Shown piece by piece: positions 16,109 to 42,018 of a DNA stretch of 64,000 nucleotides. The DNA is from an uncultured Staphylococcaceae bacterium (GTDB taxonomy: Bacteria; Bacillota_I; Bacilli_A; ML615J-28; CAG-313). The notes under the pieces were generated by a model, which saw only the letters and a program-made list of their open reading frames with translations, was not told where the DNA came from and did no database searches. How positions within the stretch are numbered: the first letter of the stretch is position 1; every line of letters begins with the position of its first letter. The translations under genes and the position numbers were made by a program. Location: assembly GCA_964507405.1 (NCBI GenBank), contig CAZDPJ010000003.1:1729-65728 (forward strand), given 5' to 3'.

Positions 16109-16767
16109 TGTTATCAATAAGACTAAAAGCAATTTATGATTTAATTGAAAAAGAAAGTAAAGTAGCCGATATCGGAACTGACCACGGTAATTTACTTTAT
16201 GAACTTGCTAAAAACGAAGTTATTTCATATGGAATTGGCGTCGAAAATAAAATTGGCCCATATAATGTTGCTAAAGAAAACTTACAATATTTTATCGATA
16301 CTGGAAAACTTTCACTTTCTTTAAGCGATGGTTTAAATGAAGTACCAAGTATGGTTGATACTGTTATTATAGCAGGAATGGGAGGAGAATTGATTTCAAA
16401 GATTATATTTGATAATTTGGATAAAGCAAGATGCTTTCATAAATTAATTCTTCAACCTAATAGTAAAATTTATGACTTGAGAAAAAAATTATCCGAAAAT
16501 CATTTTGATGTTATCGATGAATTAATTGTTTATGATAATCATAAGTTTTACGAAATAATATCTGTAAAATATAATCCTAATAGTTTGAAGTTATCCACAA
16601 AAGAGCTTATTTTTGGACCCAAACTTTTAAGTCATAAAACCCCTGTTTTTGTGGATAAGTGGCAAAAAAAATTAAATGAAATCAATACTATATTAGGCCA
16701 AAATTCAATAAATATTGATAATTTAAAGGAATTACAAAAATTAATTATGGAGGTACTTGATGAATAA
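16108..16767 (+). CDS. trmK: tRNA (adenine22-N1)-methyltransferase
   Basis: MLSIRL, ADIGTDHG, IAGMGGELI and LILQPN; conserved position after sigA. Confidence 0.93.
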   Translation: MLSIRLKAIYDLIEKESKVADIGTDHGNLLYELAKNEVISYGIGVENKIGPYNVAKENLQYFIDTGKLSLSLSDGLNEVPSMVDTVIIAGMGGELISKIIFDNLDKARCFHKLILQPNSKIYDLRKKLSENHFDVIDELIVYDNHKFYEIISVKYNPNSLKLSTKELIFGPKLLSHKTPVFVDKWQKKLNEINTILGQNSINIDNLKELQKLIMEVLDE

Positions 16768-36871: not shown

Positions 36872-37771
36872 ATGGAAAATCTTGTCACTGAATATACATC
36901 TTATTTAGCAAGTGAAAAAATGAAAAGTCAAAATACCATAAAGTCATATCAAAGTGATTTACTAAATTATTTATATTATTTACAAAATGTAAAAAATATT
37001 GATGATATTAAAAATACTAATACATCAGATGTTTTAGATTATCTTACATATTTAAAAAAACTAGGATATTCTTCAACTTCAAGTTCGAGAAGTTTAAGTA
37101 CTTTAAAGTCTTTTTATAAGTTTTTAACCCTTGAACATTATATTAAACATAATCCAACGCTTACAATTAGTGCTCCTAAACTAGATAAAAAACTTCCAAC
37201 TGTGCTTTCAGTAGAAGAAGTACTAAAACTTTTAAATAGTTTAAATGATGATACACCATATAATGCAAGAAATAAAGCAATGATTGAAGTAATGTATGCG
37301 ACAGGACTTAGAGTAAGTGAACTTGTTAATCTAAAAATCAATCAATTACATTTGACAAGTAAAATGATTTCTACAACTGGTAAAGGAAGCAAAGAAAGAA
37401 TTGTTCCAATTAATGATTATGCGGCAAAGATACTTAGAGATTATATAGTTAAATATCGGGTTGAACTTGTTAAAAATAAAAAAGACAATAATTATTTATT
37501 CTTAAATAATCAAGGTGAGGCTTTATCAAGACAAAGTTTCTTTATTATATTAAAACGTCTTGCTAAAGAAGCTGGAATTGAAAAGGAAATTTCACCTCAT
37601 ACTTTAAGACATTCTTTCGCAACCCATTTACTTGAGGCAGGTACTGATTTAAGATATATTCAAGAAATGTTAGGACATGAAGATATATCAACAACCCAAA
37701 TTTATACCCACTTAAGTAAACAAAAAATTAAATCTGTTTATAATAAAGCACATCCAAGAGGAGATAAATAA
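36872..37771 (+). CDS. xerD: Site-specific tyrosine recombinase XerD (RipX-like)
   Basis: Catalytic set YATGLRVSEL, GKGSKER, HTLRHSFATH, LGH and TTQIYTH; adjacent to phosphopentomutase like B. subtilis ripX-drm. Confidence 0.9.
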   Translation: MENLVTEYTSYLASEKMKSQNTIKSYQSDLLNYLYYLQNVKNIDDIKNTNTSDVLDYLTYLKKLGYSSTSSSRSLSTLKSFYKFLTLEHYIKHNPTLTISAPKLDKKLPTVLSVEEVLKLLNSLNDDTPYNARNKAMIEVMYATGLRVSELVNLKINQLHLTSKMISTTGKGSKERIVPINDYAAKILRDYIVKYRVELVKNKKDNNYLFLNNQGEALSRQSFFIILKRLAKEAGIEKEISPHTLRHSFATHLLEAGTDLRYIQEMLGHEDISTTQIYTHLSKQKIKSVYNKAHPRGDK

Positions 37772-38951: not shown

Positions 38952-39871
38952 TGAGAGAAAGAAAAGTATTAAAATTTAATGATAAGACTAAGATTGTTAC
39001 TTATTTATGGATGGATCCAATCCACCATAATGAAGGCACAATTGAAATATTTCATGGAATGGCTGAAAATATTTTAAGGTATAATGAATTTGCTGAATAT
39101 TTAGCTTCTAATGGTTTTATTGTTATTGGCCATGACCATTTTGTGCATGGGGAGTCAGCTACATCTATTGATGAAATTGGGGAAACACTTGATTATGACT
39201 TTATGGATGGAATAATTAAAGCAATGAAACTTGTTCGTGATGAATATGATGAATACTTTATAAATGGTAAACGATATTTATTTGCTCATTCGATGGGTTC
39301 AATGGCTTCACAAAGATATATTCAAAAATATCCTAATGATTTTGACAAAGTTATTTTGAGTGGTACTGATATTGGTGGTGGTAAATATAGACTTGCGAAA
39401 ATGATTATTAAACCATTTACAAGACACGACAAAATTAAATATTCTAATTTTGTCTTAAATCTTACAACTACTGGATTTAACAAAAAGTTTAAAAAGGATC
39501 ATCCACAATTTGGATGGTTAAGTATAAATAAAGAAAATATTCATGAATATATTGATAATCCTTATTGTGGTAAAGACTTTCCTACTAATTACTTTTACTC
39601 CCTTTCTAAAATGATGTGTGAAAATGTAAAATCCAAAAATTTAGATTCAATTAACAAGAATATTAAGATTTTGTTGTATTGTGGAAGAGAAGACCCTGTG
39701 AGTAATTTTGGTAAATCTATTATTAAATTATCTAAGCTATATAATAAACATCAAATTGATGCATCATTTAAAATAATAGATAATGCTCGACATGAGGTTC
39801 ATAATGAATCAATTGATATAAAACATAATATTTTTGATTTGATTATTGATTTTTATAAAAAAACTAACTAA
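38951..39871 (+). CDS. Alpha/beta hydrolase (lysophospholipase-like)
   Basis: FHGMAE, DHFVHG, nucleophile AHSMGS, DPV and RHEVHNE. Confidence 0.88.
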   Translation: MRERKVLKFNDKTKIVTYLWMDPIHHNEGTIEIFHGMAENILRYNEFAEYLASNGFIVIGHDHFVHGESATSIDEIGETLDYDFMDGIIKAMKLVRDEYDEYFINGKRYLFAHSMGSMASQRYIQKYPNDFDKVILSGTDIGGGKYRLAKMIIKPFTRHDKIKYSNFVLNLTTTGFNKKFKKDHPQFGWLSINKENIHEYIDNPYCGKDFPTNYFYSLSKMMCENVKSKNLDSINKNIKILLYCGREDPVSNFGKSIIKLSKLYNKHQIDASFKIIDNARHEVHNESIDIKHNIFDLIIDFYKKTN

Positions 39872-39917: not shown

Positions 39918-40666
39918 ATAGGCCTTTTTTTGCGTTTTTTAATCTAAAATGAATAAATATCGATTTGCATATTTAAATCAAAAATAAGCCTAAAATAGCT
40001 TCATCTTATATACTTTATATAATATTTAATAATATAACAATACATATAATTAATCTATATTAAAATAAAATATAAAGGCAAAACAAGCGTAAATTTTAAA
40101 AGATTAATTAACAAATGATTAATTAAACAATAAGAATTAAAAATACAAAATATCCTTTAATTTTAGTTTCAAATAAAAAATATAAAAAATTAGACGCTTT
40201 AGACTTGATAATAACCCTTCTGTGAGCGTCTGAAAAATAAAAAGATGAATAATTCTAATTAAACTTTTTAAATCAGGGCATAACATAAAATATATAATAA
40301 TTGGATATTAGAATTATTTAAAAAAATAAAATATAATAATTATATAAGCCTTCCTAAAAAAGATGAAATTTAAAAAGACGCATAAACACTAATTAAGCTA
40401 TAAAGACAAATAGTAAAAAAAGTTATATTCTTAATTAATAGTAATAGCCCTTTTTATAAAGAGCGTAATATAAAAAGTTGAATAGTTGTTAATTAAGCTA
40501 TTATAAAATAAGATCTTTATTTTAGTGATTGATAGGCCTTTCTAGAGAGGATGAAAATTAAAAAGATGAATAATTACCAATTCAAATTTTGGTTTGGTAG
40601 TTACTAATAAATAAAAATGCCTAGTAAAAGATGAAAGATAAAATACTTGATAATTAGTAATCCACA
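39918..40666 (+). repeat. Left array of degenerate ~55-bp polar repeats
   Basis: Clear copies start at 40211 (1-nt gap), 40344, 40444, 40532 and 40612; weaker copies at 39918 and ~40072. All are on + and share ATAR(C/G)CC, TGAAA, TAAAAAG, GAATAATT and TAATT(C/A)AA blocks in one register. Confidence 0.8.
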
Positions 40667-40730
40667 TTGTATTTGTGTATAAGTATATGGAAAACATACT
40701 AGTTATCCACAATCAAAAAACTTATCAACG
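40658..40730. promoter_or_regulatory. DnaA-box cluster
   Basis: TAATCCACA 40658-40666 (1 mismatch), TGTGTATAA 40674-40682 (TTATACACA on -), TTATCCACA 40703-40711 (perfect) and TTATCAACG 40722-40730 (2 mismatches), versus consensus TTATNCACA. Confidence 0.65.
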
Positions 40731-40778
40731 TTTATAGTTTTTCATTGATTTATCTAGGTTTTACTTTGCTTTTTTATT

Positions 40779-40806
40779 GGTTAACATAATATATATTATA
40801 GGAAGT
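40779..40806 (-). other. dif: dif site (XerCD chromosome dimer resolution site)
   Basis: Minus strand ACTTCCTATAATATATATTATGTTAACC (28 bp) differs at only 2-3 positions from the recalled B. subtilis (ACTTCCTAGAATATATATTATGTAAACT) and S. aureus dif sites. It lies exactly where gene orientation converges. Confidence 0.93.
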
Positions 40807-41105
40807 AAAACACAGATAAGTAAAACATCGAAAATAAGAGATTAAATGCTTCAAATCATTAAAATGGAGTATTTATTTGTCGAATTCTACTTATTTTATT
40901 AAATAAACTAACTCATTTTAATAATCATGACTATATTTAAAAAGCTAAAATATGCAGTATTTTTAAAACATAATCTTATACTGTTAATTACTCAGAATTA
41001 GATAGAAAATTCAAAATACCCCTTTAAATCGCCTTTAGATTTAAAAATAATAAAACAAATGCATTTATTGGAATTTACTTCTTATTTTAAAGGTTATCTT
41101 TACAA

Positions 41106-41495
41106 TTTAAGTTAAATAATTATTCATTTATTAAATTTCATACGTTTAGAGTAGGGTTATAAACTACTAGTTATTAATATTATTGTAAAAGCTTATATTA
41201 GTAATTATGAATCTATTAAAATTCATGCGTTTAATGAAAGCTTATAATCTATTAATTATTAATAAATAAATAATCTAAATAATTGAATAGTAGTTATATA
41301 ATTAATATTATTTCAGAAGCTAATACTGTAGTTTATATATTTAATGTTTTAAAGTGCTAATCCATGTTAATTATAAATAATTAAATTTAAATTTAGTATA
41401 TTTTTATTTTAAACAATAAAAAAACCGGGATTTCTCCCAGTTTGAATTAGTAATTATTCGACTTTTTAATTTTCATCCGCTCACAGAACGGTTAT
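41106..41495 (-). repeat. Right array of degenerate ~55-bp polar repeats (inverted relative to left array)
   Basis: Minus-strand copies at 41495-41441, 41245-41191 and 41160-41106; weaker copies at 41336-41282 and starting 41097. Confidence 0.8.
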
Positions 41496-41500
41496 AAAGC

Positions 41501-42018
41501 CTATTTTTTCTTTTTAAATGAGTAGACAGTAAAAATTAATAATATTATGATTGGTATTATAAAATAAATTGTATTAAAAATAATACATGAATACCATGGT
41601 GCTGAATTACTTTGATCAGTAATCAATATGATAATTTCAATTATTGTTTTTATTAAAAAACTGGTTGTAACGAGTATTAAAGCACCTAATAATATAAATG
41701 GATGATGTTTCATCAATTTTACTACTTATTAGTAAATATGAAAATATAATTATTCCGATAAAACCAATAATTGCGATTATAATATCTAGTAAAAGTAACT
41801 TCTTCTTATTACTCGATATTTTTCTAAGTTGTAATAATTCATCTGAACTGATATTAAATAGATTACAAAGCATAATAATGTTATCAATATCAGGTAAACT
41901 TAAATTTGTTTCCAATTTTGATATAGTTTGACGTGAAAATATTTAGTTTATTTGCTAAATCTTCTTGAGTAAAATTATTTTGTTTTCTTAATTCTTTAAT
42001 TTTTTCACCGATTGTTAT
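41501..42018 (-). pseudogene. Decayed XRE-family HTH plus membrane-domain gene (start loss, frameshifts)
   Basis: RBS AGGAG is followed 7 nt later by ATA-ACA-ATC-GGT (likely ATG>ATA). Reads TIGEKIKELRKQNNFTQEDLANKLNI / frameshift / SRQTISKLETNLSLPD...FNISSDELL plus TM, then a second frame change into a small TM peptide (SAPWY). Confidence 0.75.

Follow-up and report, generated by a model that had tools for sequence, protein, structure and literature searches.

DnaA, the initiator of replication, is also known to act as a transcription factor and to bind titration and reactivation loci, and Xer, dif and FtsK are familiar as the machinery of the end of the chromosome cycle. In the canonical dif/XerCD (CodV-RipX)/FtsK-SpoIIIE system, a 28-bp, single-copy site at the skew switch goes together with XerD, a second Xer protein and the gamma domain of FtsK, and it is FtsK that activates XerD. 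To our knowledge, the flanks of E. coli and Bacillus dif contain no conserved array of protein sites. Fixed-distance DNA beside a Xer core, to which proteins other than the recombinases bind and which governs the result of recombination, is a feature of the plasmid sites cer (ArgR/PepA) and psi (ArcA/PepA), which occupy about 180 bp. Their accessory sequences lie on the XerC side, and recombination there is made independent of FtsK.

Clusters of boxes of the TTATNCACA type also occur outside oriC at datA, DARS1 and DARS2 in E. coli and at the DBCs of B. subtilis, where they are thought to be bound by DnaA and so to influence the cycle of initiation. These loci are situated mid-replichore or in the half of the chromosome around the origin, contain more boxes or additional IHF or Fis sites, and are not known to show a fixed geometry to another site (in part after PMC4585315). 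At origins, the basal unwinding system involves two same-strand boxes, 0-3 bp apart, directed toward an AT-rich target (PMC8287927, PMC6669920), tandem boxes being the commonest arrangement in it (PMC8287927).

The locus dealt with here is in a window, the whole 64,000-nucleotide stretch of DNA that was analysed, from an uncultured bacterium. In contrast to datA, DARS and the DBCs, its boxes are few, at the terminus and locked to the XerD arm of dif. Unlike cer and psi, it is chromosomal, its boxes are of the DnaA type and on the XerD side, and an FtsK gamma domain is encoded. Compared with the basal unwinding system, no DnaA-trios are seen, the gap between boxes and target is ~40 rather than ~13 bp, and the target is a recombination site at the terminus. 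The contrast with canonical dif is confirmed by 40 named genomes of Bacillus, Priestia, Metabacillus and other close Bacillaceae genera, in which the flanks of the B. subtilis-type dif are free of such an array. Among the papers and reviews searched, on DnaA, dif, termination and replication, none linked DnaA boxes to dif, and there seems to be no earlier description of dif combined with a phased DnaA-box array.

The dif site and its surroundings

The dif site (40779-40806, minus strand) is of the Firmicute type, 28 bp long with a 6-bp centre between arms of 11 bp each, and reads ACTTCCTATAA-TATATA-TTATGTTAACC on the minus strand and GGTTAACATAA-TATATA-TTATAGGAAGT on the plus strand. A genome-wide search (reverse complement ACTTCCTATAATATATATTATGTTAACC) yielded one copy in this genome, and a single copy was likewise found in 29 of the 41 relatives searched. 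Going by its resemblance to the dif sites of E. coli and B. subtilis, we take 40779-40789 to be the XerD-type arm, which is then the one facing the boxes. Near 41000 the GC skew goes from about +0.2 to about -0.15, with its maximum at dif, and gene orientations are convergent at ~41000; given this skew switch and the converging genes, the dif region is the terminus. A reading of the window made earlier from the sequence only had placed it there, and skew, gene orientation and the single copy of dif all uphold that placement. In ten complete genomes dif is ~180 degrees from dnaA.

The associated proteins are those expected of a chromosomal dif/XerCD system. The gene for XerD (36872-37771, plus strand; TIGR02225, 371 bits, above the curated cut-off) is 3 kb from dif on the box side, in the order lepA, hemW-like gene, xerD, deoB, hydrolase, dif. 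A second, XerC-like Xer protein (325 bits) and an FtsK gamma domain (G000:C4:77742-77921; 47.5 bits, above cut-off) are also encoded, and the site conforms to the chromosomal type in architecture, copy number and terminus location as well as in this complement of XerD, second Xer and FtsK gamma. The distance between xerD and dif is 2.4-4 kb in G001, G012, G025, G213 and G369 (Acholeplasma brassicae), and 59-85 kb in G206 and G244. When FtsK gamma domains of this genome and 27 others were scored, families with the boxes described below gave 46-82 bits and those without gave 86-106 bits. The low scores may reflect phylogeny, or altered reading of DNA or XerD by the translocase.

A T-rich run (40771-40778, plus strand) abuts the XerD arm and is present as well in the dif flanks of the 40 Bacillaceae. 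Outside it is a conserved spacer motif, AGGTTTTACTTTGC (40757-40770, plus strand), for which the consensus in the family is GGCTTWTTRCCT or GnnTTTTACYT at about -26 to -14, counting from the start of the dif core as for all offsets here; in other families GC-N5-7-TAG occupies this position. A perfect 9-bp inverted repeat, GTTTTACTT (40759-40767) and AAGTAAAAC (40803-40811), flanks dif, its right arm overlapping the outer XerC arm. As a general part of the module this inverted repeat, or inverted XerC-like half-site, was discarded, a copy at the same position being present in just 10 of 86 loci. To the right of dif, non-coding blocks are kept among genus relatives at 40866-40887 and on to ~40960, and comprise GGAGTATTTATTTGTCGAATTC (with a Spo0A-box-like TGTCGAA), AAATAAACTAACTCATTTTAA and CATGACTATATTTAAAAAG.

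Arrays of a 55-bp repeat, a family-wide feature, converge on dif from both sides (40205-40675 and 41108-41502). In one genus (g7; L115, L116, L119) the innermost repeat (AAAAAGATGGATA...) directly adjoins the box at -59.

The four boxes in this genome

Four 9-mers were scored against the DnaA-box consensus TTATNCACA, of which TTATCCACA is the canonical form: two are exact, one has a single mismatch and one has two. Box 1 (TAATCCACA, 40658-40666, plus strand, offset -124) is the one with a single mismatch, box 2 (TTATACACA, 40674-40682, minus strand, -108) is exact, box 3 (TTATCCACA, 40703-40711, plus strand, -79) is exact and canonical, and box 4 (TTATCAACG, 40722-40730, plus strand, -60), from which 48 bp remain to dif, has the two mismatches. 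The earlier reading had reported four box-like 9-mers before dif in this interval, and all are present where it put them. It was also correct, as alignment of the repeats supports, in taking box 1 to be the 3' end of the innermost copy, a degenerate one, of the 55-bp repeat; elsewhere in the array AATTCAAA or AATTAAAC is found at this place. No support was found for its further idea that the ends of the repeats represent degenerate DnaA boxes or the evolutionary source of such boxes. Only this copy reads CCACA; in genus relatives AATTCAAAT, AATTCGAAT or a like sequence closes the innermost repeat. The conserved boxes (-60 and -79/-80) lie outside the repeat.

The four are not of equal standing when relatives are considered. 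Box 2, whose orientation is against that of the conserved array, is without conservation in relatives. Box 3 is in a conserved -79/-80 register and is common to the genus relatives L021, L022 and L025. Box 4 is orthologous to the most conserved position of the family, at which relatives have TTATCAACA, TTATTAACA or TTATCCACA at -59/-60. A further site used by relatives, at -50, is empty in this genome.

From this genome by itself, the statistics of the boxes are suggestive, moderately unusual and not compelling. Exact boxes are not enriched, either in the window (5 against 5.1 expected) or genome-wide (71 against 53-86 in third-order Markov simulations), and the whole assembly contains 14 copies of the canonical TTATCCACA. 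Clustering is somewhat more distinctive. Two or more exact boxes within 100 bp occur at just 3 places in 1.51 Mb, namely oriC, the dif locus and a pair inside a gene. When each exact box counts 2 and each one-mismatch box counts 1 over a 120-bp span, 3 clusters reach at least 5, against 0-1 per simulated genome; the dif cluster has 3 boxes with no more than one mismatch within 120 bp.

The window also contains two perfect TTATCCACA boxes, inverted and 59 bp apart (16591-16658), in a trmK-like gene downstream of dnaG-sigA. No conservation of this pair was found in 40 relatives, and it is probably fortuitous or recent.

Position, strand and phase among relatives

The dif sites of relatives were located by pattern search and their flanks read from the extracted loci. 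Among 70 order-level loci, plus-strand boxes with at most one mismatch number 53 at -60 to -41, 28 at -80 to -61 and 14 at -120 to -101. On the minus strand the same loci have none at -60 to -41, the background being 0-3 per 20-bp bin. With 20 class-level loci added, giving a set of 90, box starts are at -50, -59/-60, -69/-70, -79/-80, -91 and -112 to -115, a ~10-bp register amounting to one position per helical turn. A strong box at -64 to -44 is present in 63 of the 90 loci, compared with 1-8 of about 88 in five control windows, and the dif-adjacent cluster, for which conservation in relatives had been named as a check, is conserved in this sense. The boxes are on one strand and always on the side of the XerD arm. 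The intervening spacer differs in sequence among families and is constant in length to within 1 bp. The offsets of -50 and -59/-60 are likewise held within 1 bp across families, the fixed distance to the core that characterises a Xer accessory site of the cer/psi type.

Among complete genomes with dnaA on the plus strand at about position 400, dif is on the plus strand in G213 and G339 and on the minus strand in G369 (A. brassicae, PMC4221730). Since the replichore that carries it varies in this way, the array follows dif and not the direction of the fork. Judged from the aligned loci, conservation of position, strand and phase across dozens of genera cannot have come about by chance, and it supports the view that the terminus has in these boxes a genuine element of DnaA-box type, kept by selection and distinct from an origin.

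The distribution was surveyed in a class sample of 401 genomes, in 237 of which dif was found; 134 of the listed 80-nt flanks were scored by family. A box at -64 to -44 is present in 26/26 genomes of family f13, 7/7 of f18, 20/20 of f19, 15/21 of f16, 7/8 of f4, 3/3 of f25 and 5/9 of f28, as against chance-level occurrence in f10 (0/4), f11 (0/5), f14 (0/3), f5 (1/11), f22 (1/5) and f6 (2/7). In the class sample the offsets show sharp maxima, with 60 boxes at -50 and 48 at -59/-58, and the commonest form is a tandem pair such as TTTTCCACATTATCCACA, TATCAACTTATCCACAC or TTATCAACATTATCAACA. The dif boxes of Acholeplasmataceae are often nnnCCCACAC, with 2-3 mismatches. As to identities, the G453 flank is identical to that of Acholeplasma equifetale, and G119 and G184 (Ca. 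Izimoplasma ZiA1) are Izemoplasmatales. On this distribution the module is characteristic of Acholeplasmataceae, Izemoplasmataceae, Anaeroplasmataceae and the uncultured order to which the window belongs.

When some 185,000 species genomes were scanned for exact occurrences of TTATCCACA-N25-55-TTWACATAATATACATTAT, 12 matches were obtained. Six are from Acholeplasmataceae, Izemoplasmatales and Anaeroplasmataceae, four are from Halodesulfovibrio and Desulfovibrionaceae, and two are single, the latter being, on a rough estimate, what chance would provide. The four from the different phylum (L256, L258, L259 and L262; Halodesulfovibrio and one uncultured Desulfovibrionaceae) have a tandem TGTTTCACAATTATCCACA at -52, 43 bp before the dif core, which is conserved among them although the spacer is divergent. 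In this exact scan, most Proteobacteria that share the dif core are without the module. Its absence there and from the 40 Bacillaceae genomes implies that it is no general requirement of Xer recombination. The dif flanks of family f6 have, in place of DnaA-type boxes, ATTGT(A/T)TAGTA at a distance of some 35-45 bp from the XerD arm, on its outer side; accessory sites of various kinds may generally be placed here, beside XerD.

Probable occupant and proposed role of the array

The interpretation we favour, at about even odds, takes the four 9-mers as the form that a conserved dif-accessory module has in this genome, a module most likely bound by DnaA and physically coupled to XerD and FtsK. It is envisaged as a co-oriented array of DnaA-box-type sites, helically phased at ~10 bp. 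The array begins ~40 bp beyond the XerD arm and runs away from dif over 1 to about 7 turns of the helix, with the short conserved spacer motif between it and dif. DnaA would occupy the array as a cooperative oligomer on boxes some of which are weak; at origins, cooperative ATP-DnaA oligomers make use of weak, phased, co-oriented sites. The bound complex would then act physically on XerCD-dif, or on an FtsK-type translocase that reaches XerD from the array side. In one version the oligomer on the boxes gates or positions activation of XerD by FtsK, and in the other FtsK strips the DnaA oligomer off at division, and in either, DnaA occupancy would be linked to the final step of the chromosome cycle. 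Physical action on XerCD or FtsK is proposed because selection acts on the distance of the boxes from dif, on their strand and on the helical face they present to it, and the fixed strand, 10-bp register and constant spacer together are the signature to be expected of proteins that touch or share a face of the DNA. The gating or hand-off mechanism itself is speculative. Several features of the loci count against this interpretation as a whole or against DnaA in particular: here there is no box at -50 and the one at -60 departs from the consensus at two positions, the best-conserved dif boxes are often non-canonical (TTATCAACA, TTATTAACA), and the module is limited to certain clades. The divergent FtsK gamma domain of the box-positive families could likewise mean that the sites are read by another DNA-binding module, or could reflect phylogeny.

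That DnaA is the binder is nonetheless likely, the consensus of the array being the DnaA box. This genome has a separate oriC at dnaA, on another contig (C6), with TTATCCAC[A/T] boxes upstream and downstream of the gene (C6:37490-37561 and 39028-39044), as the earlier reading had asked to see confirmed. The doublet TTATCCACTTATCCACA, a tandem same-strand pair, occurs twice in it. The oriC regions of relatives share their box vocabulary with the dif arrays (TTATCCACA, TTTTCCACA, TTACCCACA, tandem same-strand pairs included), and in many dif loci there is a perfect TTATCCACA or TTTTCCACA, the very sequence of the boxes at the oriC of that genome. Within the same genomes, position 6 tends to be C in oriC boxes and A in dif boxes.

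In the principal competing explanation, the array is the site of some other protein, a clade-specific dif factor or a diverged FtsK gamma, and resembles a DnaA box without being one. A6 at dif against C6 at oriC would fit such a binder. What is best conserved in the dif boxes is ACA together with C or A at position 6, and positions 1-4 drift in Acholeplasmataceae (ATTC, ATAC, TTAA, ATCT); the module co-occurs, in a limited set of clades, with low-scoring FtsK gamma domains, and family f6 keeps its different motif, ATTGTWTAGTA, at similar distance. The perfect boxes shared with the cognate oriC, and the tandem same-strand pair at this genome's own origin, are hard to reconcile with such a protein, as is the same motif at the same distance in Halodesulfovibrio: a motif found in more than one phylum speaks for the universal DnaA rather than for a factor peculiar to one lineage, and another binder seems unlikely. 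A variant in which the boxes are guides of KOPS or SRS type for the translocase was rejected, TTATNCACA being too rare (just 71 copies) and its skew too weak, with the canonical TTATCCACA at 6:3 leading to lagging and the overall 39:17 mainly due to TTATTCACA. Less likely again is a free-standing titration or reactivation locus of the datA, DARS or DBC type, the copy number of which would double at the end of replication without contact with Xer or dif. A non-origin cluster of DnaA boxes, with additional outer boxes in many relatives, is what such a locus would look like, and a terminus position is a natural signal for the end of replication. Yet titration has no need of fixed strand, a 10-bp register or a spacer kept within 1 bp across families, for which reason it is the weaker part of the earlier reading, and where a dense, enriched locus with many boxes would be expected there are 3 boxes with at most one mismatch within 120 bp and genome counts of exact boxes that equal the null. 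The earlier proposal, that DnaA binding at the terminus couples completion of replication or dimer resolution to re-initiation, therefore survives in part: coupling to dimer resolution fits the fixed geometry to dif, and a datA- or DBC-like titration locus does not fit so few boxes.

Two further possibilities relate the boxes to initiation, of transcription or of replication. The boxes might be operators of a DnaA-regulated promoter, for instance a minus-strand one with its -10 element inside dif that reads leftward through them, and to this we give little credence. A candidate, TTTACT-18-TATAAT (minus strand, 40824-40795), does match at 10 of 12 positions with a perfect -10 TATAAT in dif, and GTAAA at +38 to +42 is retained in some genus relatives. 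The -10 element, though, comes with the dif sequence of the clade, the -35 is unconserved beyond the genus, promoter-like sites number 8 against 6.4 expected from shuffled sequence, and downstream there is no conserved ORF or RNA (the ORFs are just 20-56 aa, and there is no Rfam match), flanks beyond the module being unrelated between genera. A structured RNA was also considered and rejected, there being no Rfam match and the fold z-score of -2.9 (40650-40830) deriving from the unconserved inverted box pair and a hairpin that spans dif. Scarcely credible, finally, is that the array serves the terminus as a second origin of replication or is the vestige of one. Its tandem boxes, co-oriented and followed by an AT-rich stretch, do resemble the box part of the basal unwinding system (PMC8287927), but where an origin would have a GC-skew minimum beside dnaA and dnaN, this site has the skew maximum and convergent genes of a terminus, with dnaA on another contig, the true oriC there, and dif opposite dnaA in the ten complete genomes. 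DnaA-trios, which would be three or more NAN repeats some 13 bp beyond the boxes, were not seen by eye in the spacers of 110 loci, and for this and for the terminus location an origin or unwinding element was rejected.

For exact TTATNCACA the leading to lagging ratio over the whole genome is 39:17, mostly through TTATTCACA at 21:6, with C-rich relatives of the motif biased oppositely; the bias may be a coding effect. The strongly skewed words in this genome are purine-rich, GAAGAAG (653:48) being among the most skewed 7-mers. In Acholeplasmataceae and Izemoplasmataceae (L194-L208), AGAAGG, GAGAGG and GAAGAG are found just outside the box pair, at about -70 to -95. Purine-rich words that point at dif are candidate translocase guides of a KOPS- or SRS-like kind.

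As to the dif accessory module itself, a stronger form of the interpretation can be put forward tentatively, as a possibility rather than an expectation. An ATP-DnaA oligomer on the phased array would be an integral accessory factor of dimer resolution that either controls, or is displaced by, the FtsK-type translocase that activates XerD, and the same wiring would be in use in several phyla (Acholeplasmatales-related Bacilli and Halodesulfovibrio). Acholeplasma is a cultivable and tractable carrier of the module, and genetic tools are available for A. laidlawii (PMC10805103). That a DnaA-box array keeps one distance, one strand and one helical face with respect to the XerD arm, in many genera and at least two phyla, points to a physical link between DnaA and the Xer/dif/FtsK machinery. 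If so, the state of the initiator would be wired, at one composite site, to the final act of the chromosome cycle, and the site would provide a testable handle on how completion of replication and segregation reports back to the control of initiation, or the reverse.
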